Below are positions 68 through 16,468 of a stretch of 64,000 nucleotides of DNA, piece by piece (the stretch's first letter is position 1; each line of letters starts with the position of its first letter). Both the position numbers and the translations under genes were made by a program. The DNA lies in NCBI GenBank assembly GCA_028824125.1, contig JAPPES010000085.1:79281-143280 (forward strand), read 5' to 3'. A model generated the notes under the pieces. That model was not told the DNA's origin and did not search any database. It saw only the letters and a program-made list of their open reading frames with translations. This DNA is from Candidatus Poribacteria bacterium. GTDB taxonomy: Bacteria > Poribacteria > WGA-4E > WGA-3G.

Positions 68-961
68 GTGTTAAAAAAAACTGTTTCTGTTGTCACATTG
101 ATGATCCTATTTAGTTTAAGTGTAACGTTACTCGCTAACGAATGGGCGACCTACTATTTTCCAGGCAAAGTTGGCAGTTCCTGGGTTTATGAAGATCAAG
201 ATGGCAACGAATTAACGCGCTATGCTGTTGAAGAAAAAAATGTTGAAGGCAATACGTTTCGCGCCTTTGAGTATGAACCTGAGATAGATGATTGGGAAAA
301 ATATATGTATGCTGTGCAACCCTTTTTGTATCAAGTCGGTGATGAATGGGTTGCTTTCTACGTTGGAGATGATATAGAAAACGCGACCGAGTCAATCCTG
401 AGTAAAAAACTTGACGAAACCCTTGCGATCATCCGTCAACAAACCGCAGGGCAACTCCCTCCCGGTGTCACGATTGATTTCGACTATACTATTGACCCCA
501 AAGCACAAGATTATTTTTACCTATTTCCAACACCTGTTGCATATAATGAAGAGTGGGTCGCTATGGAGTTAGATGTAAAAGTAGGGATGACCATGGACAT
601 TCAAGGAGCACCCGTTGAAATTCCTGCAGCACTTAAAACCGTTTCATCTACGACTAATGTTGTCGAAACAGGTAACGTTGTTGGAAAGGAAACTGTTGAA
701 ACTGAAGCAGGTACATTTGAAGAGTGTTTAAAAATTGAATATAGAACCAAAACAACTGTAGACACCGAACTCCCTCCCGAATACAAGCAGCTCCTTCCAG
801 AACAACAAACAAATGAATCTGTTTCAACCTTGTGGTTAGCCCCTAATGTCGGAATTGTCAAATTCAAGAGTGAACAGGAGAATTCAGATGAGGTGAAAAC
901 GCTTGAATTAAAAAGTTACGAAATCCAATCTGATGGATCCGAAAACGGAGAAAGTAAATAA
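68..961 (+). CDS. Secreted protein, member 1 of a tandem paralog family of unknown function. It has a signal peptide and one ~280-aa module.
   Basis: The ORF has an N-terminal hydrophobic signal peptide and is preceded by an AGGAG RBS before a GTG start. It shares the motifs [44 protein letters not shown] and LELKSYEI with the next four genes. Confidence 0.75.
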   Translation: MLKKTVSVVTLMILFSLSVTLLANEWATYYFPGKVGSSWVYEDQDGNELTRYAVEEKNVEGNTFRAFEYEPEIDDWEKYMYAVQPFLYQVGDEWVAFYVGDDIENATESILSKKLDETLAIIRQQTAGQLPPGVTIDFDYTIDPKAQDYFYLFPTPVAYNEEWVAMELDVKVGMTMDIQGAPVEIPAALKTVSSTTNVVETGNVVGKETVETEAGTFEECLKIEYRTKTTVDTELPPEYKQLLPEQQTNESVSTLWLAPNVGIVKFKSEQENSDEVKTLELKSYEIQSDGSENGESK

Positions 962-1021
962 TCTGTAGGACTTGCTTGGACTGCTGTCAGATTGATGATT
1001 CTTTATAAGGTGACATTCCGC

Positions 1022-1987
1022 ATGTTGAAAAAACTGTGTCCTTTCTTGATATTTTTCCTAACTTTTTATTTCAGTACGACTCTAATAGGAAACGAATCCA
1101 CGCAAAAGTATTTTCCAAGTACGCTTGATAGTTTTTGGGTTTATGAAGACCAAGGTGGGAACGAGTTAACACGTCGTGTGATTGAAGGAGAAGAAATTGC
1201 GGGGAAGACATATTACGGTTTCAGTTACGAACCTGTGTCAAAAGATTGGATAGATTTTAACCGTTACATGCATCTTTCTCTGTTTAATATTGGGGAGGAG
1301 TGGATAACGTTTCTTGTCGAAGAAGAAATAAAAAAAGCCGTCAAGGCACGCTTAACCAAAGAGATGGAAATTTTCTCTAAATTGGCAAAGAGTTCTTTAG
1401 AAAACAACACCCCACCCGAACTCAACCTTACTGTTGAGTTCAACTATCATGTGGAAGTAGAAGCAAAAGACGAATTCAATTTACTCCCGATCCAAGCAAC
1501 TCCGGATGAAGAATGGGACACATCACAAATTAATGCCAAAATCACCATGAAGTTCGACATACAAGGATTGCCAGACTTTCAGGGTGCTGCAGAAATGCCT
1601 GAAATCACACTTGATTTTACTATCGTTGAAACGGGAAAAATCCTTAACACAGAAACTGTTGAAGTGGCCGCTGGAACGTTTAAAGATTGTTTGAAAATCG
1701 AGTATAAAACGAAAACAGAAATGATAGCATCCCATCCATCAGGAACAAAAGATTTACCAGGTGAATCGATTAACACATTATGGTTAGCACCCAATGTTGG
1801 AATTGTCAAATTTCACCAACAATCTGATAAGATTTTTCTCAATATGATGTCAGATAGAGATGCCGTTGATGCGACAATGTCTGATGAAGAAGCTGCAGAG
1901 ATTACTGCTCCTTCAGTCAAGACTTATGAATTAAAGAGATACGAAATAGTGTCTGAAGTTTTACCAAACGATGACAACAAAGAATAG
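1022..1987 (+). CDS. Secreted protein, paralog family member 2. The start was moved from the ORF-track 992 to the internal Met of MLKKLCPF.
   Basis: The protein has a signal peptide and the motifs [46 protein letters not shown] and YELKRYEI. The other paralogs all begin MLKK/MLKR, which supports the later start. Confidence 0.75.
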   Translation: MLKKLCPFLIFFLTFYFSTTLIGNESTQKYFPSTLDSFWVYEDQGGNELTRRVIEGEEIAGKTYYGFSYEPVSKDWIDFNRYMHLSLFNIGEEWITFLVEEEIKKAVKARLTKEMEIFSKLAKSSLENNTPPELNLTVEFNYHVEVEAKDEFNLLPIQATPDEEWDTSQINAKITMKFDIQGLPDFQGAAEMPEITLDFTIVETGKILNTETVEVAAGTFKDCLKIEYKTKTEMIASHPSGTKDLPGESINTLWLAPNVGIVKFHQQSDKIFLNMMSDRDAVDATMSDEEAAEITAPSVKTYELKRYEIVSEVLPNDDNKE

Positions 1988-2035
1988 ATAATTTTCAGAA
2001 TTATACCAACGAGAAAACAGATATGGAGGGTTCTC

Positions 2036-2968
2036 ATGTTAAAAAGATTTTGTCCGGTATTGATATTACTTTTAGTCTTTGGTTTTAGCACAACCTTGTT
2101 AGGGAACGAGTCAGTGCAAAAATATTTTCCTGGCACTTTAGATAGTTTTTGGGTTTATGAAGACCAGGATGGAAATGAGTTAACACGTTATTCAATTGAA
2201 GGCGAAGAGATTGCCGGTGAAACGTATCTTTCTTTTAGTTATGACCCTGAGTTAGAAGATTGGGCGAATTATAGTTGTTTTATTCATCCGGGGCTATATA
2301 GTGTGAATGATGAAGGGATCACACTTGTTGTTGACAAAGCGGTAGAGAATGCCGTTGAAGCGCGTCTTAAAAAGGAAATGGATATGTTCGTAGAAATTTT
2401 AAAACAAGAAGTTTTTAGCCAAGCACCGCCAGGTGTAGAAATACCCGCCTTTAATTTAGATGTTGATGTTGAGGCACAAGGGCAAGAAAATTTTTTGCTG
2501 CTACCTGAAAATGTTGTGGCGGATGAAGAATGGGACGCAAACCAAGTCAAAGTCAAGGCTAAGATGACCATGGAAGGGCCAGGCGTTGTTACGAGTGATG
2601 AACCGTTGGGGATGGATTTCACGATAATAGAAACAGGAATTGTGCTTGGCACAGAAACAGTTGAAACGATTGCTGGCACGTTTAAAGACTGTTTGAAAGT
2701 TGAATATCGGACAGAAACAACCGTAGTATTGACCCCAACGCCTTCACCTGATGAAGTAGCACCTCCAGGAGAAACCGTAACGACAGTTTGGTTTGCACCT
2801 AACGTTGGAATCATAAAATTACATCAAAAATCGGGATACATGTTCTTAGATATGATACCAGATGATGCTGATTTTCCTGTAGCTCCGCCTCCTCCTACTG
2901 AGAGAACACTGGAATTAAAAAGATATGAAATCAAAACCGCTGAATCGGAAAGTGATACTGAGAATTAA
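2036..2968 (+). CDS. Secreted protein, paralog family member 3.
   Basis: A GGAGGG RBS precedes the start. The protein has a signal peptide and the motifs [46 protein letters not shown] and LELKRYEIK. Confidence 0.75.
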   Translation: MLKRFCPVLILLLVFGFSTTLLGNESVQKYFPGTLDSFWVYEDQDGNELTRYSIEGEEIAGETYLSFSYDPELEDWANYSCFIHPGLYSVNDEGITLVVDKAVENAVEARLKKEMDMFVEILKQEVFSQAPPGVEIPAFNLDVDVEAQGQENFLLLPENVVADEEWDANQVKVKAKMTMEGPGVVTSDEPLGMDFTIIETGIVLGTETVETIAGTFKDCLKVEYRTETTVVLTPTPSPDEVAPPGETVTTVWFAPNVGIIKLHQKSGYMFLDMIPDDADFPVAPPPPTERTLELKRYEIKTAESESDTEN

Positions 2969-3015
2969 TATACAAGAAGTCAGACATCACCTTCAACTGA
3001 ATTGGAGAAAATATC

Positions 3016-5634
3016 ATGTTAAAAAGACTGAACATCATTTTAATACTTTTATTCGCCTTTAGCTTTAGTGGGACACTGCTGGCAGATGAATCTGCAAATA
3101 AATATTTTCCATCAACGCTTGGAAGTTTCTGGGTTTATGAAGACCAAGATGGTAACGAGTTGACGCGTCATGCGATTGAAGGTGAAGAAATTGCTGGTAA
3201 GACTTTTCCTGCGTTCAATTATGAACCGGAGTTAGAGGACTGGGCAGAATATAGTCCTTTTATTCGTCCGTCTCTATATCAAGTTAGTGATGCAGGAGTC
3301 ACATTGTTTGTAAGAGAAGAGGTCGAAAAGGCAGTCAAAGCACGGCTTACCAAAGAAATAGAGACTGTAATTACAAAGTCTGAGGAAGAAGATCCTTCTT
3401 TTAAGCTTGACTACGATGTGGAAGTGGAAGTACCAAACATATTTTATATTCTGCCGGAGATTGTAACTAAGCAAAAAGAGTGGGAGGCAGTAAAAATAAA
3501 TGCCAAAATCACTACAGAATTTGGTGAAGCCAATTTCAATATTATTGAATCCGGAAAAATACTCGGCACACAATCTGTCAAAACATCTGTTGGCACGTTT
3601 AAAGACTGTTTGAAAGTTGAATACCGCACTGAAACAATCTTGCAAATATCTCCTCCAGACGAAGATGTCGGGTCCCCTGGCGAGTCGATAACAACACTTT
3701 GGTTAGCACCTAACGTGGGGGTTGTCAAGGTCCATCAAAAAGTCGAAGATATGCTTTTAAAAGCTATGCTTGACCTTAAGCTACCATCTGCAGCCACCGT
3801 TAGGACACTTGAATTAACAAAATACGAAATCAAATCAGCTGATACTAAAAGCAGCGAAAACAATTCTATTTCTGTTGTAAAATCTACAGAAGAAAAAGTT
3901 GAAACTGAAAAAGCAAAGTCGTTATCAAACGACACACAGCGTATAAATTATCTTCCCAGTCCGTTGGGAAGTTTTTGGGTGTATGAAGACCAAGATGGTA
4001 ATGAATTGACACGCCGCGCAGTTGAAGGCGAGGAAATAGTGGGTAAGGCATACCAATCCTTTAGTTATGAACCTGAATTAAAAAAATGGATGGATTATAG
4101 TTTCTTTATTCGTCCGTCTCTATATCAAGTTAGTGATGCAGGAGTCACATTGTTTGTAAGAGAAGAGGTCGAAAAAGCAGCCAAAGCACGGTTAAGTAAG
4201 GAAATGGAGTTATTGAGAGGAATAATAGAATTAGATGATCCAGATGCAGCAAACTTCACCTTCATAATTGAAGCAGAAGCACAAGACCAGGTCCATCTAC
4301 TACTCACCCCTGTAATCCCCTACGAAGAATGGGACGTAAATCAAATAAAAGCCAGTCTTAAATTGCAATTTGAAGGTGACCAACCGTCAATAGATTACAC
4401 CATTATAGAAACGGGAATTGTCACCGGAACTGAAGATGTTGAAACAGCTGCAGGTGTATTTGAAGATTGTCTAAAAGTTGAATACCACACAGAAACAACC
4501 GCAATTATCACCCCTGACCCTCGACCTGGCGAGAAAAAATCACCAGGAGAAACTATGACAACTGTATGGTATGCTCCCAACGTCGGAATCGTAAAATTAC
4601 ACCAAAAAAGAAAATACGCATTTTTTGATATGATTCCAGATGATGATAGTTTTCAAAAACCGCCTGATCCAAAACCGATAACGCTTGAATTAAAGAAATA
4701 TGAAATCAAGACAGTTGATCTTGAAAGTGCCAGGAAACAGTCTATTACGACACCCAAGCCACTAAAAGGTGATGCCGAAAAAGGAAAAACTAAAACAAGT
4801 AACGCACAATCCCCGAATTATTTTCCTGGCACATTAGATAGTTTTTGGGTTTATGAAGACCAAGATGGTAATGAATTAACACGCCGTGCTGTTGAAGGTG
4901 AGGAAATTGCTGGTAAAACTTATCCTGCATTCAGTTATGAACCGGAGTTGGAGGATTGGGCAGAATATAGTTGGTTTATTCGCCCTCCTTTGTATCAAGT
5001 GAGTAATGCTGGTATCACACTTGTTGTTAGCGATGAGGTTGAAAAAGCAGTTAAAGCACGCCTTAAGAAAGAGGTAGGTATTCTCACTGACGCAATAAAA
5101 CGGGATGCTCCACTGGACGCAGGTATTGACGCTGATATTAAGGTACAGGGACAAAACCAGTTATTCCTCCTCCCCGACACTATTATTCTTTTCAATGAGG
5201 AGTGGGACGTTAACCAGATTGAAGCAAACGTCAAGATGAAATTTCTGGGTGGAGGTGTCCCAGAGGATCAACAATTGGTAATTGATTTCACGATTTTAGA
5301 AACAGCAATTATCTCTGGTACTGAAACTGTTGAAACACCCGCTGGAAAGTTTGAAAACTGCCTGAAAGTTGAATATCGTACAGAAACTACTGCAGCAATG
5401 ACGCCTGCCCCACCACCCGATGAAGTAGAACCGCCAGGAGAAACCGTAACGACTGTGTGGTATGCTCCAAATGTCGGAATTGTCCAATTTCGTCAGGAAA
5501 CGAATTACATTTTTTTAGAAATGATTCCAGACGATGAAGATCTTCCTGTGCCACCTGGACCTAAAACGAAAACGTTTGAATTAAAGAAATATGAAATCAA
5601 ATCTGAAGAACCAGAAAATGAAGAAAGCAATTAA
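3016..5634 (+). CDS. Secreted protein, paralog family member 4. It is an in-frame fusion of three complete modules under a single signal peptide.
   Basis: The 872-aa product repeats the full module three times, with [14 protein letters not shown] at aa ~35, ~325 and ~610. Each module ends with a (T)LELxKYEIK motif. Low-complexity linkers separate the modules. Confidence 0.75.
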   Translation: MLKRLNIILILLFAFSFSGTLLADESANKYFPSTLGSFWVYEDQDGNELTRHAIEGEEIAGKTFPAFNYEPELEDWAEYSPFIRPSLYQVSDAGVTLFVREEVEKAVKARLTKEIETVITKSEEEDPSFKLDYDVEVEVPNIFYILPEIVTKQKEWEAVKINAKITTEFGEANFNIIESGKILGTQSVKTSVGTFKDCLKVEYRTETILQISPPDEDVGSPGESITTLWLAPNVGVVKVHQKVEDMLLKAMLDLKLPSAATVRTLELTKYEIKSADTKSSENNSISVVKSTEEKVETEKAKSLSNDTQRINYLPSPLGSFWVYEDQDGNELTRRAVEGEEIVGKAYQSFSYEPELKKWMDYSFFIRPSLYQVSDAGVTLFVREEVEKAAKARLSKEMELLRGIIELDDPDAANFTFIIEAEAQDQVHLLLTPVIPYEEWDVNQIKASLKLQFEGDQPSIDYTIIETGIVTGTEDVETAAGVFEDCLKVEYHTETTAIITPDPRPGEKKSPGETMTTVWYAPNVGIVKLHQKRKYAFFDMIPDDDSFQKPPDPKPITLELKKYEIKTVDLESARKQSITTPKPLKGDAEKGKTKTSNAQSPNYFPGTLDSFWVYEDQDGNELTRRAVEGEEIAGKTYPAFSYEPELEDWAEYSWFIRPPLYQVSNAGITLVVSDEVEKAVKARLKKEVGILTDAIKRDAPLDAGIDADIKVQGQNQLFLLPDTIILFNEEWDVNQIEANVKMKFLGGGVPEDQQLVIDFTILETAIISGTETVETPAGKFENCLKVEYRTETTAAMTPAPPPDEVEPPGETVTTVWYAPNVGIVQFRQETNYIFLEMIPDDEDLPVPPGPKTKTFELKKYEIKSEEPENEESN

Positions 5635-5696
5635 TGGTGTCAGACACATCATTTTTCCTTAAACTCAATCTATAATTGTCAATTAAAGGAGTTATT

Positions 5697-6587
5697 ATGT
5701 TAAAAAAAGTTTGTGCTGTCCTGATATTTTTGTTCGTCTGTAGTTTTAGTGCAACCCTACTGGGAAATGAGACAGCGAAAAAGTATTTTCCCAGCACACT
5801 TGGAAGTTTTTGGGTATACGAAGATCAAGATGGCAATGAGTTGACGCGTAAGGCGGTTCAAGGTGAAGAGATTGCAGGTGAAATGTATCATGCTTTTGAA
5901 TATGAACCGGCATTTGAAGAAAATTGGGAGAAGTATGAGTATTACGTCCATCCCACGCTTTTTAAGGTAGAGGACACAGGAATTAAGTTCTTGATTGGTG
6001 ATGAGGTTAAGAAGGCTTACAAGGAGCGGCTTACTAAAGAGGTAGAGGCTACTGTCCAACGTCCAGTCGGACAGTCAGTTTCTACTTCTAACTACGATGT
6101 AAAGGTAGAAGTAGAAGTACAAGACAATTTCTTCTTGCTTCCTATACCTTTCGCCCTCAACGAAGAATGGAATTCAATCTGGATAAAACCTAAGGTTAAA
6201 ATAACACTGAGTTTTGGAAACTCTGGTGTTGAGGCAGAATTGGCTGGAATGTCGCGGGTAAGTAACTTCTATTTTACAATTATAGAAAAAGGTATTATCA
6301 CTGCCAAAGAAACCGTTGAGACACCTGCTGGCACATTCAAAGACTGTTTGAAAATTGAATACCGGACAGAAACTGTGATGCCAACATTCGCAGGACAAGG
6401 CGCTCCTACAGCTGGTGAATCTGTTTCAACATTGTGGTTAGCTCCCAACGTCGGGATTGTGAAATTTCACCAAGATGCTGAAAGACCTATTGTCAGCGAT
6501 TTCAACGATCCTCATACCCTAACACAAGTGAAAACACTTGAGTTGAAGAAGTATGAAATTAAAACAGATGCAGCGAGGACTGAATGA
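5697..6587 (+). CDS. Secreted protein, paralog family member 5. The start was moved from the TTG at 5676 to the ATG of MLKKVCAV. Its stop overlaps the hemB start.
   Basis: An AAAGGAG RBS lies 6 nt upstream of the ATG. The protein has a signal peptide and the family motifs. Its TGA stop lies inside an ATGA shared with hemB. Confidence 0.7.
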
Positions 6588-7561
6588 GCGTTTTTCCTAT
6601 TTATCGTCCAAGACGGTTACGCGCAAATGAAAACCTGCGTCGACTTGTCCGAGAAACGAGTCTGTCTGTAGACGATCTTATCTATCCGATGTTTGTTGTC
6701 CACGGAGATGACACGGCAATAGAAATTTCTTCTATGCCGGGATGTTACCAATATTCTATTGATCGGCTTGTTAAAGCTGCGAAGGATCTTGCATCGCTTG
6801 GAATTCCCGGGACGATCTTGTTCGGAATTCCTGAAACGAAAGATGCACTTGGATCGGAAGCTTATGCCGAAGATGGTATCATTCAGCAGGCGGTACGCGC
6901 CATTAAGGATGCTGTTCCTGACCTACTTGTGATTACAGATGTTTGTCTGTGTGAATATACCGATCACGGACATTGTGGTATCGTGGAAGGCGGAGATGTG
7001 CAGAATGATCCAACACTTGACTTGCTTGTTAAAGAGAGTGTATCGCACGCGCAGGCAGGGGCTGATGTCATTGCTCCATCGGATATGATGGATGGCCGTG
7101 TCGGCGCAATTCGTGATGCCTTAGACGAAGAAGGCTATGAAAATATACCTATAATGGCGTATTCGGCAAAATACGCTTCTGCTTTTTATGGTCCCTTTCG
7201 TGAAGCGGCGGAATCAGCACCGCAATTCGGGGACCGCCGTTCATATCAGATGGACCCAGCGAATGCCGAGGAAGCACTACGAGAAGTGGCACTGGATATT
7301 GAGGAAGGCGCAGACATTGTGATGGTGAAACCCGCACTCTCATATCTTGACGTTATCCATCAAGTGAAGACAGAATTTCAGATGCCTGTTGCAGCCTATA
7401 ACGTCAGTGGCGAATATGCTATGATAAAGGCAGCCGCACAGAATGAATGGATTGACGAAAAACGCGTAGCACTGGAGGTCTTAACAAGTATCAAACGTGC
7501 TGGTGCAGATATGATTTTGACCTACTTCGCAAAGTCGGTCGTCGAATGGCTTGAAAATTGA
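6584..7561 (+). CDS. hemB: Porphobilinogen synthase (delta-aminolevulinate dehydratase).
   Basis: The N-terminus is RPRRLR. A zinc-type Cys cluster [14 protein letters not shown] is present. The match to HemB family proteins runs the full length. Confidence 0.9.
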
Positions 7562-7595
7562 GGTGCGGGTAATAGTAAAACCTATAATTAAGGGA

Positions 7596-7740
7596 CATTT
7601 CTGTAGCGTAAACTTCCAGTTTGCGTCAAATATGCACAAACTAACAGTTTGTGCTACAACTTCTATTGTCCGTTATGTCTCCAAAACAGGTTTATCAAAG
7701 TGTCCCAATAATTTCAAAGTTTACTATGAGTAGGTTCGAT
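7596..7740. repeat. MITE-like repeat, family A. Its terminal motif is TGTAGCACAAACTT-like. It carries an ~85-bp tail that is near-identical to 43985-44070.
   Basis: The sequence gtagcgtaaacttccagtttgcg...gtttgtgctacaac recurs at about 16655, 20650, 43840, 57690 and 60965. The ORF-track ORF 7551..7733 lies inside this element and is probably spurious. Confidence 0.6.
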
Positions 7741-7810
7741 AATAAAACCGTTCCTACCGTTGATGTATTTACATAATTTAGATTTTACAAATTAGAATTG
7801 GAGGAACGAA

Positions 7811-9094
7811 TTGGAGAGTAGCAAATCTTTATCAGCGTGGCAAAAATCACAACAATTTATCCCTGGCGGTGTCAACAGTCCCGTCCGTAATTTTAGCAAG
7901 GTTGGTGGACATCCCCGCTTTATTGATCGCGGTGAAGGGGCCAAGATTTACGACATAGACGGAAACGAGTATATCGATTATGTCGCTTCATGGGGACCAT
8001 TAGTTTTGGGGCATGCACATCCTGATGTGGTCGAAGCCGTCAGGACTGCAGCAGCGCGAGGCACAAGTTTCGGTGCTCCGACAGCATTAGAGACAGAACT
8101 TGCAAAAACTATCGTCAACGCAGTGTCTTCCATTGAACAGGTCCGACTTGTCAACTCAGGTACGGAAGCGACAATGAGCGCGATTCGTGTCGCACGCGGT
8201 TATACAGGACGCAATAAAATCATCAAGATAGATGGTTGCTATCACGGACATGTAGACTATCTATTGGCAAAAGCGGGTTCAGGCGTTGCAACTTTCGGTC
8301 TTTCGGATAGCGGTGGCGTGCCAGAGGATTTCGCACGGAATACACTCACTATCCCGTTTAACGATCCTGAGGCATTGACAACAACAATTGAGGCTAACAC
8401 GGACGAGATCGCCTGTCTCATACTGGAGCCTATTATGGGCAACATGGGGATTATCCCACCACGTGAGGGGTACCTCAATGAACTTCGTGAGATTACTGAA
8501 CAGCATGGGATCGTGCTTATCTTTGATGAGGTAATTACCGGTTTTAGGGTCGCTTATGGTGGCGCACAGTCATATTATAACGTTACACCAGATATGACAT
8601 GTTTAGGGAAGATAATCGGTGGTGGTTTGCCTGTCGGTGCTTACGGCGGAAAACGGGAGATTATGCAGTGTGTTGCCCCAGAAGGCGATGTGTATCAGGC
8701 AGGCACATTATCTGGTAATCCGTTGGCTGTCACTGCAGGTATAACGACTTTGAAAAAGCTGGCGGAACCAGGGGTTTATGAGCAACTTGAAAACCGCGCA
8801 TCTACTCTGGCAGACGGAATAGCAGAAGCAACCCAAAAACATGGAATTGATGCATGGCATAGCCGCGTCGGTTCAATGCTGATGCTATATTTTACAGCAG
8901 AGACTGTTACTGATGCAGATGGTGCACGAACAGCCGATATAGAACGTTATCGTCAGTACTTTTGGGGACTCCTTGAACGTGGTGTTTATGTCGCCCCTTC
9001 CCAATTTGAAGCCGGATTTGTATCCTTAGCGCATTCCGAAGAGGATATCAATATGACCGTTCAAGCTGCAACTGAGGTAATCGCAAATCTGTAA
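7811..9094 (+). CDS. hemL: Glutamate-1-semialdehyde 2,1-aminomutase.
   Basis: The N-terminus reads GGVNSPVR, followed by a class-III aminotransferase fold. The similarity to HemL is full length. Confidence 0.9.
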
Positions 9095-9112
9095 CAGTAG
9101 TAAAGGAATTGA

Positions 9113-10093
9113 ATGTCAAGTTTTGATCAGATTGTAAATTTAATTGCTGACGATCTTAGTGCTGTAGAGGCGAAACTGACTGAAAATACAGCGAGCGAAT
9201 ATAGTTTTGTAGATATGGCGGTTCAGCATGTTGTAGAAGGAGGCGGTAAACGCTTACGTCCTATCCTTGTTGTGCTATCTGCAAAAGCGCGTGGATACGA
9301 AGGTGCGGATGCACACACACTCGCAGCAGTTGTTGAACTCATCCATGTTGCATCCCTTGTGCATGATGATGTGCTTGATGAAGCTGCAATCCGCCGTGGA
9401 CGTGAAACATTACAGACAAAATGGGGCAATAAGGTGGCAGTACTTGTTGGGGATTACTTGCATGCCCGCGTTCTTTCAATGCTCGTTTCCCGCCGCGCAG
9501 ATGACCCCGCAATGGCGATCCTTGCCGATACCACGCAGGCAATGTGTGAGGGGGAAGTCATCCATGCCTATAAAAGTGGAGATTTTGATATATCAGAAGA
9601 GGAATACCTAAAGATAATTAGTTTTAAGACCGGTAAGTTGATTGCCGCCTCTTGCACGCTCGGTGCGATCCTCGGACCTCATGACACTCAGCAGATTGAG
9701 GCATTCACAACCTACGGCAAACAAATTGGAACTGCATTCCAAATTGTAGATGATCTGCTTGATTTCGTGGAAGACCCAGAAAAATTAGGAAAAAATGCTT
9801 TTGGTGATCTTCGTGAAGGGAAACTTACTTTTCCTATTATACATACCCGAAAAGTGTGTGATGATAATGAGAAACAAACGCTTGAAAAAGTGCTAAATCC
9901 TGACACCGATGAAACCGAAGCTATTACCTTTGTTGAATCTTTATTCCAAAAATATGGTGTGGAAATTCACTGTTTGGAAATTGCACAGAGTTATGCCGAC
10001 CGTGCTAAAACTGCGTTAACAAATATACCACAATCGGATGCGCGTACAGCCTTGCAAAACCTTGCGGATTACGTCGTTTCACGGGATTCATAG
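9113..10093 (+). CDS. Long-chain trans-polyprenyl diphosphate synthase (IspB/HepT-like).
   Basis: Two aspartate-rich motifs are present: LVHDDVLDEAAIRRG and FQIVDDLLDF. A KTGKL motif is also present. Confidence 0.8.
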   Translation: MSSFDQIVNLIADDLSAVEAKLTENTASEYSFVDMAVQHVVEGGGKRLRPILVVLSAKARGYEGADAHTLAAVVELIHVASLVHDDVLDEAAIRRGRETLQTKWGNKVAVLVGDYLHARVLSMLVSRRADDPAMAILADTTQAMCEGEVIHAYKSGDFDISEEEYLKIISFKTGKLIAASCTLGAILGPHDTQQIEAFTTYGKQIGTAFQIVDDLLDFVEDPEKLGKNAFGDLREGKLTFPIIHTRKVCDDNEKQTLEKVLNPDTDETEAITFVESLFQKYGVEIHCLEIAQSYADRAKTALTNIPQSDARTALQNLADYVVSRDS

Positions 10094-10097
10094 TAAA

Positions 10098-11219
10098 ATG
10101 TTTTATCCAGCACATATAAATCTGCAAAATAGAGCATGCCTTGTTGTTGGGGGGGGCACTGTTGCTGAACGTAAAGTTGTCTCTATGCTCATCAGTGGTG
10201 GAAATGTAACTGTGATTAGTCCAGACGCAACCGAATTAGTTATATTCCTTGCTGAGATAGGCACAATACAATGGCACAAACGGCAGTTTAAGACAGGAGA
10301 TACGAGCGGATATTTTCTTGTATGTGCCGCAACCGATTTTACAGATATAAACACCGCAGTATACGCTGAAGCACATAAAGAGAAGAACATTCGTTTAGTC
10401 AATGTCGTTGACGTTATCCCACAATGTACATTTGCTGCTGCGTCTGTAATAACAGATGGCAAACTCATGATTAGTATCTCCACAAGTGGTATGAGTCCAG
10501 CGACAAGTCGGCGCATCCGAGTACATTTTGAAGAGACGTTAAAGACGTCATCTTTATATACGCTTGGATATGAAAATGGAAAACCTGTACCAATTGAAAA
10601 TCAAAGATTGCCATATCCAGTTTACCTGTTATTGGAAGATCGCAAGTGTGTTGTCCTATATGAGCAGGAAACATCGGAAATTGAACGTAGAGTCTCACTA
10701 TTACGTCAGTGTGGCGCGATAGTGGTGCATAATCCTATGGACTTTGATGATGCATTCCTTGTGATTTCCGATACATCTATAAGTGATGTTTCTGATGGCT
10801 TCTTACAAGAGATTCTCGATAGACCAAACTCTGCTGACTTCTTTACACCGAATCTCGTTATAGATGATAACCTTATTATTAGCATATCAACAAAGGATAG
10901 CACAGATGTAAGCAAGATGGAACGTTTACATGCGAAACTCACGCATCAGTTTGAAAACAGCGGTTACGGTGCATTTATTGACCTGCTTGGCAAGCGGCGT
11001 CCGGAAGTCCTCAAAACTTTTCCTACGTCCAAAATGCGCGGCGATTTTTTTGAGAAACTTATCGGACACGTCGTAGACAGTCCACAAACATGTTGTCTAA
11101 GTCTTACAAACCCTGCGTGTTCTGCCGAATGCCTTTTCAACTGGGTACGACATGGTAAAATTAAGGACGCAAACAACTTTATATCGGAGTTTTTAAGCGC
11201 ACAGCAAGCAAAAATATAA
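10098..11219 (+). CDS. Precorrin-2 dehydrogenase / sirohydrochlorin ferrochelatase-like protein (SirC/Met8 family) with an internally duplicated degenerate domain. The start was moved to ATG 10098, just after the upstream stop.
   Basis: The N-terminal Rossmann signature LVVGGGTVAERKV is typical of SirC and the CysG N-terminus. The second half (aa ~190-370) repeats the same fold pattern in degenerate form. Confidence 0.65.
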   Translation: MFYPAHINLQNRACLVVGGGTVAERKVVSMLISGGNVTVISPDATELVIFLAEIGTIQWHKRQFKTGDTSGYFLVCAATDFTDINTAVYAEAHKEKNIRLVNVVDVIPQCTFAAASVITDGKLMISISTSGMSPATSRRIRVHFEETLKTSSLYTLGYENGKPVPIENQRLPYPVYLLLEDRKCVVLYEQETSEIERRVSLLRQCGAIVVHNPMDFDDAFLVISDTSISDVSDGFLQEILDRPNSADFFTPNLVIDDNLIISISTKDSTDVSKMERLHAKLTHQFENSGYGAFIDLLGKRRPEVLKTFPTSKMRGDFFEKLIGHVVDSPQTCCLSLTNPACSAECLFNWVRHGKIKDANNFISEFLSAQQAKI

Positions 11220-11222
11220 CGA

Positions 11223-12080
11223 ATGTCAACAGAACTCCTGCATTTTCTTTTTCTTATTACCGTATTAGTCTATTTAGCAGCCAGTATTTTTCAGGCACTC
11301 TACCTTGCAATAGGGGAACGATCTGAAACGCCGACTCTACGTCCACGGATCGCCTCAATCGCTTTCTGGGGAACGTGTCTTGGGTTTGCTTTGTTAACGC
11401 TTTTCATTGGACTCTGGTGGTCATTTCAAGGACATTTCCCAATGACGCACTGGACGGACTCAACAGCTTTCTTTGCGTGGGCAATCACCTTAATCTACCT
11501 GATTGTTGTTCGAATGACGCAGCTACATGCTATTGGAAGTTTTGTGATGCCTCTTGCATTCATTACAATCCTGATTTCCTATAGTTTCTCCAGAAATACA
11601 TCAGCATTGCCAGAAGATTTGGAAACCTATTGGTTAGTTCCACACGTTACACTTATTCTGCTTGCTTATGCTGCATTTATCACAGCCTTTGGGTTTGGAC
11701 TGCTTTACCTGATGGCAGAGAAAAAGATCCGTGAAAAGCAACATACGATCTTTCAAAACCTTCTTCCGTCCCTCGGTGCTTCGGACGAACTTGGTTTCCG
11801 ATGTACATTACTCGGAGTGATCCTATTGACAACGGGGGTAATTGTCGGGGCACTATGGACTCAGTATATTAATGAGGAAGTGAGATGGAGATGGCTTGAT
11901 TCTAAAGTTCTTTTTACTGTCGTGACATGGGTCATCTATGTTGTGCAAATTGGTATCCGTCAAGTGTGGGGTTGGCGTGGCAGAAAAGCAGCGTATTCTG
12001 AAATCGCCGGTTTTATTGCCGTACTCTGTACCTATATTGGTGTGAATCTGTTCTTAGACAGCGCACACACATTTCGGTAA
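11223..12080 (+). CDS. Cytochrome c assembly protein family membrane protein (CcsA/HemX-like).
   Basis: The protein is a multi-TM protein with a Trp-rich segment (WWSFQGHFPMTHWTDSTAFFAW, QVWGWRGRK). Its position between sirC and hemA matches the Bacillus hemAXCDBL arrangement. Confidence 0.7.
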   Translation: MSTELLHFLFLITVLVYLAASIFQALYLAIGERSETPTLRPRIASIAFWGTCLGFALLTLFIGLWWSFQGHFPMTHWTDSTAFFAWAITLIYLIVVRMTQLHAIGSFVMPLAFITILISYSFSRNTSALPEDLETYWLVPHVTLILLAYAAFITAFGFGLLYLMAEKKIREKQHTIFQNLLPSLGASDELGFRCTLLGVILLTTGVIVGALWTQYINEEVRWRWLDSKVLFTVVTWVIYVVQIGIRQVWGWRGRKAAYSEIAGFIAVLCTYIGVNLFLDSAHTFR

Positions 12081-12119
12081 TATGAGATAGTTGCACAAAG
12101 ATGTGACAAGTGCAAAATT

Positions 12120-12149
12120 TGACATTCTATCCTCAATTGTGATATAATT
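12120..12149 (+). promoter_or_regulatory. Near-consensus sigma70-type promoter (TTGACA-18-TATAAT) about 50 nt upstream of hemA.
   Basis: Read directly from the sequence: tttgacattctatcctcaattgtgatataatt. Confidence 0.45.
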
Positions 12150-12199
12150 TACTAACTATCGGACATTCGCAAGTATTCAGTATCCGACGAGCAAGTATC

Positions 12200-13501
12200 A
12201 TGAATCAGATTGTATCTATTGGGACAAGCCATCATATAGCACCCGTTGAATTCAGAGAAAAGCTGGCTTTTTCCGAAGAACAACTCATAGAATCCCTCCA
12301 TCATCTGCGCGAATCACATAAGGTTGATGAGGCAGTAATTCTCTCTACCTGTAATCGCGTAGAGGTTTATGGGGTCGCTAATTCCCAGCGAACAGCCAAA
12401 TCACCTGTTTCAGTCTTGTTTGACTTTTTATCTGATTACCATCGAATTAGTGTGGATACACTCAAAAAATGGAGCTATCGTCACCATAACCTTGATACCA
12501 TTTTACATCTTTTCCGGGTTACATCCAGCCTTGATTCAATGGTTGTGGGTGAATCTCAAATTTTAGGTCAAGTCAAAGAGGCTTATGATTTTTCACGTTC
12601 AGCAGGAGGTGCAGGGGCAATCCTAAACCGCCTTTTCGCGAAGGCATTCAGTGTTGGTAAACGTATACGTTCAGAAACCACTATTGCTGCAGGAGCTGTG
12701 TCGATCAGTTATGCAGCGGTAGAACTTGCTAAAAAGATTTTCAATACTTTAGAAAACAAAACCGTAGCGATTATTGGCGCGGGTGAGATGAGCGAACTGA
12801 CTGCCAAACATCTCGTCGCGAATGGTGTTTCAAAAGTAATCGTTGCGAACCGTACTTATGAACGTGCTGTCAAGATTGCCGAGAAGTTTAAAGGCGTCCC
12901 TGTTGCTTATGAGGAAAACCTAAACTTTCTCATTGATGCGGATATCGTCATCAGCTCCACAGACGCCCCCTATTATCTCATTGAACGCAAACCGCTTGCT
13001 GAGATTATGAGAAAGCGGAAACATCGGTATATGTTTCTCATTGACATCGCTGTTCCACGCGATATTGAACCGGACGTGAGTAAAATCAACCACGCCTTTC
13101 TCTATAACATTGATGATTTAGAAGCTGTTGTAGCGTCTAATCTCCAAGAACGGAAACAGGAAGCGGTTCGCGCTGAGCAGATTGTCTCTGAAGAGGCGAA
13201 GCAATTTCACGACCAATTGCAAATCCTCGAAGTTAATCCCACCATTAAAGCACTACATCAGCAGTTTCAACAGATAGCCGAATGTGAACTCAAAGTCTGC
13301 TTGGGTAAGACTACATTGTCAGACACACAAGAAGATGCTGTTGCATCTATGACACAAGCAATCGTTAAAAAACTTCTACATCACCCGGTAGAAAATTTGC
13401 GCCACGCTGTTAACGATGGCAATGCTGATCATGGGCAATATGTTCATGCCCTCCAAGAGTTGTTCGCTTTGGACAATAATGACGATAAGGAACAGGAATG
13501 A
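12200..13501 (+). CDS. hemA: Glutamyl-tRNA reductase.
   Basis: The N-terminus reads IVSIGTSHH...LSTCNRVEVY with the catalytic Cys. An NADP-binding GAGEM motif is present. Confidence 0.9.
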   Translation: MNQIVSIGTSHHIAPVEFREKLAFSEEQLIESLHHLRESHKVDEAVILSTCNRVEVYGVANSQRTAKSPVSVLFDFLSDYHRISVDTLKKWSYRHHNLDTILHLFRVTSSLDSMVVGESQILGQVKEAYDFSRSAGGAGAILNRLFAKAFSVGKRIRSETTIAAGAVSISYAAVELAKKIFNTLENKTVAIIGAGEMSELTAKHLVANGVSKVIVANRTYERAVKIAEKFKGVPVAYEENLNFLIDADIVISSTDAPYYLIERKPLAEIMRKRKHRYMFLIDIAVPRDIEPDVSKINHAFLYNIDDLEAVVASNLQERKQEAVRAEQIVSEEAKQFHDQLQILEVNPTIKALHQQFQQIAECELKVCLGKTTLSDTQEDAVASMTQAIVKKLLHHPVENLRHAVNDGNADHGQYVHALQELFALDNNDDKEQE

Positions 13502-14424
13502 GCAGCTCGGTTACAATTGGCACGCGTGGCAGCCAACTTGCGCTATGGCAAGCATCCTTTGTAAAACAGCAATTAGCACACCATTTCCCCGATGTTGAAG
13601 TTAACCTCAAAATCATCAAAACCACCGGTGATACTATCCAAAATCGTTCTTTGGTGGGATTAGGCAAAGGCGTTTTTACCAAAGAGATAGAAATCGCGCT
13701 ATTAAACGGTGATATAGACCTTGCTGTTCATAGCCTTAAAGACCTCCCAACAGAATTACCCCAAGGACTTTGTATAGCCGCGATCCCAAAGCGTGAAGAC
13801 CCACGCGATGTACTCGTTACATCCACAGGGTTCTTCTTAGAAGATTTGCTGCATGGTGCGAAAATCGGCACTACAAGCCCACGGCGAAAGGCACAACTTC
13901 TCCATCTACGTCCAGATTTGCAAGTTATTGATGTCCGAGGCAATGTTGATACTCGGATCCGTAAACTTGAAGAAACCGATCTTGATGGGATTATTCTCGC
14001 TGCGGCAGGGATTAAACGCCTCCTTAAGGAAGAAGTTATCACGCAATTTTTTGAAATAGAGCAGATGGTGCCAGCAGTTGGACAGGGAGCATTGGCGATC
14101 GAAGCGCGTGAAGGAGATAGCGACATTGAAAACCTACTTGTTCCTTTGAACGACACAACGACAGTTGCCGAAATTACCGCTGAAAGAACTGTATTGGAAA
14201 GTCTCGGCGGCGGATGTCAAGTGCCGATAGGCGCGTATGCTGAACACGTTGAGGGTGAACTCTCACTTATCGGCACTGTATGCCATCCTGAAGGGAGAGT
14301 CCGTATTGTAGAAAGCGCAGCGGGAATGTTAGACGATGCACAGCACTTGGGCAGAATTGTTGCTGAAAGATTGCGTAACAGCGGAGCAAATGAACTGTTG
14401 AAAGCACTGTCAGATGTGGAATGA
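13498..14424 (+). CDS. hemC: Hydroxymethylbilane synthase (porphobilinogen deaminase).
   Basis: The N-terminus reads IGTRGSQLALWQA. The start shares an ATGA overlap with the hemA stop. Confidence 0.9.
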   Translation: MSSSVTIGTRGSQLALWQASFVKQQLAHHFPDVEVNLKIIKTTGDTIQNRSLVGLGKGVFTKEIEIALLNGDIDLAVHSLKDLPTELPQGLCIAAIPKREDPRDVLVTSTGFFLEDLLHGAKIGTTSPRRKAQLLHLRPDLQVIDVRGNVDTRIRKLEETDLDGIILAAAGIKRLLKEEVITQFFEIEQMVPAVGQGALAIEAREGDSDIENLLVPLNDTTTVAEITAERTVLESLGGGCQVPIGAYAEHVEGELSLIGTVCHPEGRVRIVESAAGMLDDAQHLGRIVAERLRNSGANELLKALSDVE

Positions 14425-14426
14425 AT

Positions 14427-15836
14427 TTATTCTCTTTGCGCACAAGGCACAATAATAGAATCCACCATCCCGTGTAATATCTTCTTATCGGCAGGACAGA
14501 CAGCTGCCTGAATTCCACCGAGTTTCACAGTATCACCTACAACAAAATAGTATGGACGCAGAAGTGGGCGGGCGGGCAGCTCTTGCATATCCGCAGTTTC
14601 AAAATCGTAGTATTGCATCCTTACACGTTGGGCGGTGTGGAATTGCTGTAATACGTGTGGTGTTTTCTCAAAAGACGCAAGACCATTTTCAATTGCAGCT
14701 CCCCACTCCTCTGTTGACAGATCATGCCCGATTTTGACGCCACGGCTACCCCAGGCGAGTTCCGAAAACCCCGAAGGTTTGATTACTAATTCCCGTTGCC
14801 GTTGTGTTACAATACTGAGTTGTCGCCAGTCCGTTACAGGCATATTCTCTATTTCCAAGTTTGGAATAATAGCATGCGGCGGTAAAGGACGCGGATCAAG
14901 GACCCACGTCTGTGGAATCGCTTCCTGTAGAAACGGATAGGTTTTTTTGCCAAGTTGACGTTGCCAAAAAGGTTGAAGTGAGGGATGGTGGAAGAGCGCG
15001 AGACACAATTTCTCTTCTAAATAGGCTTTCGGAGGAGGTGTCATCACAACGGTGCGCTTCTTCGCACTATAGAAGATTAATTCTGCTTTCGGGATGTTCG
15101 GAAGATCAAATAACTCATAGAAGCGGTAAACGACATCAACCTCCATCTTACCATCTGCATTTTGAACAAATAGCCCATCTTCGGTAAAGAAAATCTCGTG
15201 AGGTTTAACGGCGGCAGTTCTGAGTCCAGCATCACAAAGTGCATTAGCAAGCCACGCCATTTCTGGTCTATAATCTTCAGATTCGTCTGAAACAACAATT
15301 GCAAGTGTAGGATTATCCTTCTTTGCTAAAGCGCGGATCATTTCCGCATAGGAATTCACCATGCCATCTTTCCCGCCGATGATGGGATAGCCAAGTTTCG
15401 CATACAACCTCGCCAAGCAACCTGTCGCACCGATGAAACCAGGGATAGAATCAAGCTCTGTTATTATTTTGCTGTTGTCCGTAGTCGGTAAAATATCAGG
15501 GCGTATGACGCCAGGCAGTTGGCTTTTGAAGCGGTTCATCCGTCCCTGCTGGATGACACTTTCAGGTTTACCAATATCTAAATATTCTGCTACCCAAGCG
15601 GGTTGAATCCCTCTCGCGCTTTGGGAATAGAGCAAGTTGCAAGCGCGATAAAAACTTAATAGGTGCGGACCGAGTTCCTCAAACCAATTCAAGTCCTCTT
15701 GTGAAATCCAAAACGGTTCCGGTGAAATTCGCCATGATGTATTACAATCGGGGTGAACCTCCCGTTTTTCTGATGAAAATAATTTTTCCTTCGATATCTC
15801 ATCGTTGATTAACAAACATATCTGTTTTGCATCCAA
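14427..15836 (-). CDS. Circularly permuted ATP-grasp / glutathionylspermidine-synthase-like amidoligase family protein.
   Basis: VIRPDILPTTDNSKIITELDSIPGFIG and EEKLCLALFHHP segments resemble CP-ATP-grasp type 2 / GspS family signatures. Confidence 0.45.
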   Translation of the reverse strand: MDAKQICLLINDEISKEKLFSSEKREVHPDCNTSWRISPEPFWISQEDLNWFEELGPHLLSFYRACNLLYSQSARGIQPAWVAEYLDIGKPESVIQQGRMNRFKSQLPGVIRPDILPTTDNSKIITELDSIPGFIGATGCLARLYAKLGYPIIGGKDGMVNSYAEMIRALAKKDNPTLAIVVSDESEDYRPEMAWLANALCDAGLRTAAVKPHEIFFTEDGLFVQNADGKMEVDVVYRFYELFDLPNIPKAELIFYSAKKRTVVMTPPPKAYLEEKLCLALFHHPSLQPFWQRQLGKKTYPFLQEAIPQTWVLDPRPLPPHAIIPNLEIENMPVTDWRQLSIVTQRQRELVIKPSGFSELAWGSRGVKIGHDLSTEEWGAAIENGLASFEKTPHVLQQFHTAQRVRMQYYDFETADMQELPARPLLRPYYFVVGDTVKLGGIQAAVCPADKKILHGMVDSIIVPCAQRE

Positions 15837-16009
15837 ACTAAAACTCCCTATAATTCATACATTAGCATATATTTTTTATCTATAGAATTATATAGAATTT
15901 CTGTGATTTACGCAACATTAAGTGGCATTTCGTTATGGAGCAGGGCAAATAAAAAAGTGTGATGGTATTCAGCAGAAAGCCTACTCACTATCACATCTCG
16001 ATTGTCGCT

Positions 16010-16468
16010 CTAATCATTGAAGTGACGATACATCTTTACTCTGAGCGTTTCTACCTCGGCTGTGAGTAAACTGATCATCTCACTCTGTTTCTGTATGAGT
16101 GCCGCAATCTGCATTTCTGACGCGCTATCCTTCCTACTACGCCATGTGATGATGAGCTGTGGAATACCTACGGCTATCACTATGAGTGCTACCAAAGCGT
16201 ATACAAGGTTTGCAACCATTGCGATCTGTTTTTCAACGCCGGTTAAACGTCCATCTAATCGCGCAAAACCCTCTTTTAAAGACACAATATCGGATTTTAT
16301 AGATACGATATCAGCTTTTATAGGCGTGAGTTCCTTATCAAGAACTGTTTCGATTTCCTCTTTGACAATCAAGCGAATTTCTTTAAGGTCTTGAGGTGTC
16401 AACTGAGCGAGAGATGGCAACGTAATAGTACACAAACAGACCGAGAAACAGAAAATAGTTTTCAACAT
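16010..16468 (-). CDS. Hypothetical secreted/membrane protein with coiled-coil segments and a C-terminal TM helix.
   Basis: The product has a signal peptide and heptad-like VSIKSDIVSLKEG repeats. A hydrophobic stretch LVYALVALIVIAVGI is present. Confidence 0.4.
   Translation of the reverse strand: MLKTIFCFSVCLCTITLPSLAQLTPQDLKEIRLIVKEEIETVLDKELTPIKADIVSIKSDIVSLKEGFARLDGRLTGVEKQIAMVANLVYALVALIVIAVGIPQLIITWRSRKDSASEMQIAALIQKQSEMISLLTAEVETLRVKMYRHFND

Follow-up and report, generated by a model that had tools for sequence, protein, structure and literature searches.

Conserved four-nucleotide overlap of hemB with a gene for a predicted exported DUF3108-like protein in Candidatus Poribacteria

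Background

In a 64,000-nt stretch of Candidatus Poribacteria DNA (assembly GCA_028824125.1, contig JAPPES010000085.1, positions 79,281 to 143,280 of the forward strand; hereafter the window), the start codon of hemB, encoding porphobilinogen synthase, overlaps the stop codon of a gene for a predicted exported protein with a DUF3108_like domain. Why should a gene for a cytoplasmic tetrapyrrole enzyme be joined in this way to a gene for an exported protein? A sequence-only reading of the window had taken the ATGA overlap to imply co-transcription and translational coupling, and had speculated that the secreted family has a role in heme, porphyrin or iron handling. The comparison of Poribacteria loci with one another and with hemB loci outside the phylum suggests that this is probably an ordinary operon junction inherited by hemB, which after a lineage-specific rearrangement came to stand as the conserved 3' terminus of an operon specific to Poribacteria.

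The junction in the window

The overlap was exact to the nucleotide (Table 1). The upstream open reading frame (ORF) opens with an ATG at 5697 and ends in frame with the TGA at 6585..6587, and the hemB start at 6584 is the first start codon past an in-frame stop, with no alternative start. The hemB start is also supported by the alignment of residue 7 to position 2 of the Pfam ALAD model, and the N-terminus MS(V/T)FPIYRPR is kept in all related loci. The TGA of the overlap is intrinsic to the first two codons of hemB (ATG AGC, Met-Ser). Among the 39 same-strand neighbour pairs of the window, only this one and hemA/hemC overlap by four nucleotides.

The hemB product matched the Pfam family ALAD (PF00490; 527 bits, residues 7-322 on model positions 2-317) and the NCBIfam porphobilinogen synthase equivalog NF006762 (539 bits against a cut-off of 297). 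Its translation contains the motifs SAKYAS and VMVKPA, which we take to carry the active-site lysines, and a cysteine-rich Zn-type motif, presumably for metal binding. As the sequence-only reading had it, the upstream gene is the last of a family of paralogs, and secretion of its product is plausible: the three single-module genes of the array encode products 45-47% identical to that of 5697..6587, and a predicted signal segment is present. The spacers within the array are roughly 30-60 nt long, every one ending in a Shine-Dalgarno (SD)-like motif, and only 67 nt of the window precede the first array gene.

Conservation of the junction in Poribacteria

A scan with the family profile, using one genome per species, returned 76 loci, all from Poribacteria or unnamed metagenome-assembled genomes (MAGs). 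Together with five look-up loci and the window, these make up an annotated set of 82 loci (cited by L numbers). A hemB gene is present in 36 entries, namely the window and 35 loci (34 distinct entries, as two look-up loci duplicate scan loci), covering 30 species-representative genomes. In 36 of 36 a family gene ends at the hemB start. Since this first scan was seeded with the family, a hemB-seeded check was made with Poribacteria hemB genes from genomes previously without a hemB locus. All four look-ups had a family gene directly upstream of hemB, and in three of them it was a single gene, itself preceded by a GFO_IDH_MocA gene.

Of 38 distinct Poribacteria loci, 36 have an ATGA overlap and two have TAATG, and at least 34 species-level genomes of the phylum share the junction without exception. 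Because synonymous sites are saturated (dS > 1) between the window and the more distant loci, this conservation does not merely reflect recency. Additionally, an SD-like motif (GGAGG, GGAG or GAGG) is located at positions -18 to -4 in 32 of the 36 distinct junctions. No hairpin was shared across the 36 folded junctions, and the accessibility of the SD-like motif was low, mostly 0.2-0.5, values that stand without a control set for comparison.

The other side of hemB is variable. Among genomes, hemB and hemL are 27 to 401 nt apart, whereas no genome has a spacer upstream of hemB. In L003, an insertion of three unrelated genes separates hemB from hemL (L003:10153-15300), and the DUF3108-like/hemB junction is unchanged; the inserted genes encode proteins of 557 and 631 aa without a Pfam match and a 481-aa TPR protein. 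Moreover, L004 and L005 have hemA and hemC in displaced positions. The unit GFO_IDH_MocA, DUF3108-like gene and hemB is conserved.

The overlap of hemB outside Poribacteria

A hemB-seeded metagenome scan returned non-Poribacteria loci only (64-72% identity), and these were used as an outgroup. No family ORF was found in any of the 80 outgroup hemB loci. Their gene order is hemX-hemA-hemC-(ORF of about 830-900 nt)-hemB-hemL, resembling that of the Bacillus subtilis hemAXCDBL operon, and the intervening ORF proved to be hemD (Pfam HEM4) in the two loci checked. The upstream gene overlaps hemB by the identical four nucleotides in 32 of the 65 loci with enough upstream sequence. In these 32 loci, hemB begins with ATG AGY, and AGGAG lies within the tail of the upstream gene.

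Poribacteria thus share with these operons the ATG AGY start, the ATGA overlap, the SD-like motif in the upstream tail and the same set of heme genes. They differ in the partner, which is hemD, encoding an enzyme of the same pathway, in the outgroup and the exported DUF3108-like gene in Poribacteria, and in the gene order, which is rearranged to hemB-hemL-ispB-sirC-hemX-hemA-hemC. Because the outgroup hemB overlaps hemD likewise, the overlap is more informative on hemB than on its partner. The ATGA design is a property carried by hemB in this part of the tree, of which Poribacteria changed the partner and the gene order. The C-terminal tail of the adjacent paralog was also considered as a hemD remnant, and this was rejected: the tails are short and acidic, like those of other paralogs.

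Table 1. Coordinates of the junction and of the surrounding features in the window
Feature	Coordinates	Strand	Remarks
hemB-adjacent DUF3108-like gene	5697..6587	+	296 aa; last of tandem array; predicted exported, function uncharacterised
Predicted Sec signal peptide	5697..5765	+	Residues 1-23; cleavage inferred before NE
Shine-Dalgarno-like GAGG	6575..6578	+	Within final codons of the upstream gene; 5 nt 5' of hemB ATG
ATGA stop/start overlap	6584..6587	+	hemB ATG 6584-6586; upstream-gene TGA 6585-6587; context ctgaATGAgcg
hemB, porphobilinogen synthase	6584..7561	+	325 aa; cysteine-rich Zn-type motif
Upstream tandem array, four further family genes	68..5634	+	68-961, 1022-1987, 2036-2968, 3016-5634 (three modules)
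Two similar 9-bp hairpins	7606..7654	+	In 249-nt hemB-hemL spacer
Remaining tetrapyrrole cluster	7811..14424	+	hemL, polyprenyl synthase, SirC-like, CcsB/HemX-like, hemA, hemC; assigned by Pfam and NCBIfam

Turnover of the upstream paralogs

The array upstream of hemB consists of one to six genes (one to about nine modules) among genomes. The hemB-adjacent genes do not form one orthologous group and fall in at least three paralog groups. A tight group comprises 21 loci, the window included, and two further sets, of 7 and 6 loci, have their nearest relatives in other genomes among genes that stand inside an array or in its first position. What persists is the junction, not a given paralog. The variation in module number and array size points to frequent unequal recombination. 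In the window, the gene at 3016-5634 contains three full modules joined by Ser/Glu/Lys-rich linkers, with a signal peptide on the first module only, and related genomes (arrays in L001-L070) carry two-, three- and four-module versions.

In two loci the hemB-adjacent gene is broken. In L033 it is split by a 1.27-kb insertion that encodes a 274-aa RRXRR-domain protein (L033:14727-16001) and is likely a mobile element; the insertion sits in a complete Poribacteria chromosome. In L010 a frameshift or stop breaks the gene into ORFs of 192 and 126 aa (L010:9911-10888), reflecting either a pseudogene or a long-read assembly error.

Probable coupling and proposed history of the junction

The invariant junction, the embedded SD-like motif and the absence of a spacer make it likely that hemB and the DUF3108-like gene are co-transcribed and translationally coupled, and in this part the claim of the sequence-only reading gained support from the comparison. 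We infer the following history. In the ancestral state, hemB would already have overlapped hemD, with its ribosome-binding site inside the hemD tail. In the ancestor of Poribacteria, hemB-hemL would have been relocated behind a unit of a GFO/IDH/MocA oxidoreductase gene and a DUF3108-like gene, where the stop/start design was either kept or re-formed with the new partner. Later, in several lineages including that of the window, the upstream gene would have been amplified to a tandem array of two to six genes, and recombination would have swapped the last paralog, the junction always being retained.

Because hemB has no intergenic region, its promoter most likely lies upstream of or within the DUF3108-like gene(s), from which hemB would be transcribed. 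Its translation might be carried out by ribosomes that terminate at the TGA and then re-initiate or, alternatively, by fresh initiation at a GGAGG-like site exposed by the upstream ribosome. Loss of the junction would be expected to cost the expression of hemB, itself expected to be essential, which is the likely reason for its retention.

Several points weigh against this inherited, coupled junction. In both L033 and L010, the 3' fragment, the overlap and hemB are all intact; because hemB is intact beside these broken partners, its expression probably does not require the upstream ORF at full length. An internal hemB promoter may be located in the 3' part of the upstream gene. The promoter scan gave 28 sites against 28.1 expected from shuffled sequence, with a sigma-70-like consensus that may not fit Poribacteria, and so carries no information on such an internal promoter. 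In addition, a true functional link could also explain why at least one family gene is kept upstream of hemB throughout the phylum.

If the 3' end of the upstream gene contained a promoter and a ribosome-binding site serving hemB itself, the overlap could be a neutral by-product of the ATG AGC start, which supplies a TGA in the +1 frame. Such compaction without coupling agrees with the TGA being intrinsic to the hemB start, with the well-spaced SD-like site that hemB keeps as its own, and with the intact hemB downstream of the disrupted partners in L033 and L010. However, only one of three frames gives this relation, which is held in 38 of 38 loci although dS is saturated. The promoter scan found no sigma-70-like site on the + strand within 5697-6583, which is weak evidence, and no locus has gained a spacer, whereas every other junction of the cluster varies. 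We regard compaction alone as unlikely, and coupling at an inherited junction as the better account.

The predicted exported DUF3108-like protein

The protein encoded by 5697..6587 matches a hypothetical protein from a Candidatus Poribacteria MAG at 100% identity and has about 930 homologues. The family is expanded in Poribacteria, with about 930 clusters at 90% identity that include arrays, multi-module proteins and peptidase fusions. An exhaustive representative search with the family gave 613 clusters at E <= 1e-3 and just 45 at E <= 1e-30, and a divergent full-length member was likewise from Poribacteria. The ratio of nonsynonymous to synonymous substitution rates (dN/dS) is 0.09-0.26 for the upstream gene versus 0.02-0.05 for hemB, indicating that the upstream gene evolves much faster; both genes are under purifying selection, even at saturated dS. 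The homologues, dN/dS and a confident AlphaFold2 (AF2) model argue that the ORF is a real gene.

The N-terminus of the hemB-adjacent protein consists of MLKK, about 15 hydrophobic residues and then FSATLLG/NE, with a maximum 15-aa Kyte-Doolittle hydropathy of 2.67. The paralogs begin with MLKK or MLKR, followed by about 15 hydrophobic residues and a motif like FSxTLLG/NE, and the signal n-h-c pattern and hydropathy are kept in all hemB-adjacent homologues. The segment is missing from the internal modules of the three-module paralog, and AF2 placed a low-confidence N-terminal helix at residues 2-28. Judged heuristically from hydropathy and pattern, export of the upstream protein through a predicted Sec-type signal is plausible. 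A lipoprotein signal was rejected, as no lipobox cysteine is conserved.

The match to Pfam DUF3108_like (PF21347; 38.1 bits against a cut-off of 27, E = 2e-9) spans only residues 201-256 (profile positions 136-183 of 199), that is, the C-terminal 55 residues or so, and all paralogs match the same model. In the AF2 model (predicted local distance difference test score 82.4, predicted template modelling score 0.78), a single long helix is inserted into an otherwise all-beta meander. Foldseek against the PDB returned 4fvs and 3fzx at probability 1.0, with TM-scores of only 0.34-0.49 and 16-18% identity, and nothing else under E = 0.1; Escherichia coli YmcC appeared at E = 0.59. The family profile likewise retrieves just two solved structures, 4FVS (BDI_3050 of Parabacteroides distasonis) and 3FZX (BF2203 of Bacteroides fragilis, 'YmcC-like fold'). 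The motif TPAGTF-DC-K-Y...W-APN-G-V and an N-terminal FP-T-G--WV hairpin are common to the family and to both of these proteins, which are also exported or lipoproteins of uncharacterised function. The Poribacteria proteins exceed them by about 80 residues, having extra strands and a helix inserted at 102-120, and also differ in occurring in tandem arrays and multi-module proteins. Modelled in this way, the DUF3108-like protein appears to be an exported YmcC-like module of beta-barrel type.

Three tyrosines and one cysteine (Y30, Y41, Y69 and C217) are invariant in the family alignment, in which neither an invariant His or Met nor a CXXCH motif was found. In Burkholderiales, DUF3108 genes are linked to DUF3567 and metH, and the fold was called YmcC-like (PMC4364669). 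In the literature library that was searched, nothing was found that links DUF3108-type proteins or Poribacteria to hemB.

Other genomic contexts of the family

In 46 of the 82 loci examined, family genes occur without any heme gene nearby, and two arrangements are found repeatedly. The first has a solitary family gene flanked by ABC-2 permease pairs (ABC2_membrane_2 and DUF3526), with genes for extracytoplasmic function (ECF) sigma factors, TolC-like OEP proteins, DUF4097 proteins and M61-PDZ peptidases as neighbours. This context, which appears to be a recurrent envelope export cluster, was seen in about 25 loci within L038-L081 (e.g., L081:6762-9788 and 13268-16303), where the permeases are about 500 aa long and C-type-lectin/CarboxypepD_reg proteins are also found nearby. 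The second arrangement places a solitary family gene between genes for a sulfatase and GFO_IDH_MocA, with ADH, TPR and FGE-sulfatase genes in the neighbourhood.

M61-PDZ peptidases of 740-1000 aa also match the family profile, and in the two with a Pfam match the DUF3108_like module is N-terminal. Such M61 proteins occur in L028, L049, L073 and L081 (e.g., L081:1283-4279 and 4263-6674), with the domains Peptidase_M61_N, Peptidase_M61 and usually PDZ; Peptidase_M61 is missing from one of the seven M61-type proteins, and an M61-type ORF with an additional ECF sigma factor match may result from the ORF caller fusing two genes. The ABC-2-context genes and the N-terminal modules of the M61-PDZ proteins have the same module and motifs as the hemB-linked genes, at about 50% identity; unlike them, they have no heme genes nearby. 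The context groups are separate, with about 50% identity between contexts, and members find their best matches within their own context.

Five divergent family genes (337-367 aa) stand in tandem at L167:1-5616, beside WD40 and HEAT-repeat genes and with no Pfam match on record. Because L167 holds this separate five-gene array, tandem amplification appears to be a general habit of the family.

Judged from these contexts, the family most likely has an envelope role, in which it would bind or otherwise handle some cargo that is exported or periplasmic, rather than one dedicated to heme metabolism. A check on co-occurrence with heme genes accordingly gave a divided answer: synteny is kept in the hemB-linked subgroup, whereas a family-wide association with heme genes is absent.

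Possible shared regulation and the heme hypothesis

The conserved unit GFO_IDH_MocA, DUF3108-like gene and hemB, as well as the ECF sigma factors that adjoin family members elsewhere and suggest envelope-signal control of the family, would fit an operon in which an envelope protein and hemB share control and respond together to a single cue, for instance oxygen or the growth state within the sponge mesohyl. However, no regulator or operator was identified upstream, where the window holds only the short sequence before the array, and the other heme genes (hemL onward and hemA) are not tightly joined to the unit. Co-regulation as the reason for the arrangement is improbable in our judgement.

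Under a functional link, the hemB-linked family members would act in the periplasm by binding or moving heme, a precursor or another tetrapyrrole, as could be needed in cytochrome c maturation or in exchange with the sponge host, and would be co-expressed with hemB on that account. The linkage is phylum-wide, with at least one family gene always upstream of hemB, the cluster includes a CcsB/HemX-like gene, and the modelled beta-barrel-type fold could hold a hydrophobic ligand, with three Tyr and one Cys invariant. Yet no similarity to known heme-binding proteins was found in Pfam, NCBIfam or fold comparisons. Specifically, HasA, HmuY, NEAT/Isd, HusA and periplasmic heme-binding proteins were not matched in Pfam, NCBIfam or Foldseek against the PDB, which returned only DUF3108-like matches at E <= 0.001. 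The heme-related Foldseek rows all had E > 1 and probability <= 0.03 (HpuA, 5ee4: E = 1.7, probability 0.01). The lack of an invariant His or Met and of CXXCH gives heme binding no positive support from ligand residues, and the residues that are invariant are common to members in non-heme contexts, the Cys motif being found in the Bacteroidales homologues as well. Furthermore, the slot next to hemB is held by different paralogs, L033 and L010 have a disrupted adjacent gene, and the overlap design is older than the partner. With hemB overlapping hemD in the outgroup, most of the loci lacking heme genes, changing paralogs and DUF3108-like matches only, the proposed role in heme, porphyrin or iron handling found no support, and we consider such a link, even one confined to the hemB-linked subgroup, improbable. 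That the hemB-linked proteins form a new class of periplasmic or surface tetrapyrrole-binding proteins, coupled to hemB to balance tetrapyrrole supply and handling, whether in cytochrome c maturation or in supplying or sensing the sponge host, and with up to nine modules tuning the capacity, is very improbable.

Comparison with known overlaps and implications

The arrangement is a lineage-specific instance of a familiar overlap design. The trpE-trpD and trpB-trpA genes of E. coli are classical translationally coupled overlapping pairs, and like them the DUF3108-like gene and hemB lie on the same strand with a stop/start overlap and an SD motif inside the upstream coding region. The trp pairs encode subunits or enzymes of one pathway, whereas the DUF3108-like protein and HemB would work in different compartments and are not known to be functionally related, and the coupling proposed here is read from sequence.

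If the coupling is true, HemB output in a whole symbiont phylum would depend on the expression of an exported envelope protein, and the junction would illustrate clearly how an essential gene can anchor a neighbour unrelated to it once an operon has been rearranged. The locus is valuable mainly as a way into a large family of uncharacterised exported proteins from a sponge-symbiont phylum. At present it opens no long-standing question of heme biology, and the idea of a heme function is testable but unlikely.

The remaining tetrapyrrole cluster

Downstream of hemB, a 249-nt spacer is followed by hemL, a polyprenyl synthase gene, genes for a SirC-like precorrin-2 dehydrogenase and a CcsB/HemX-like membrane protein, hemA and hemC, and this order from hemB to hemC was also found in related loci. 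The spacer contains two hairpins (gcgtaaact...agtttgcgt and gcacaaact...agtttgtgc), and the RNA fold of 7555-7815 had a z of -2.4. They have no T-run and no Rfam match, and they are a possible transcript end or processing site. The terminator scan gave counts equal to the shuffled expectation and did not report these hairpins, which lack a T-run. No tRNA (ARAGORN) or Rfam family was found anywhere in the window.

The second ATGA overlap of the window, that of hemA and hemC, is located at 13498-13501 (aggaATGAgc). The longest SirC-like ORF overlaps the polyprenyl synthase gene by 56 nt (10038-10093). Because the SirC-like gene of related loci begins past the synthase stop, its true start in the window probably lies further downstream.

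Directly past hemC, the window has a 469-aa ORF on the - strand (14427-15836) without a Pfam match; therefore, hemD of this genome lies elsewhere than beside hemC. In L002, a TP_methylase/HEM4 (cobA-hemD) fusion sits in the position of this ORF.

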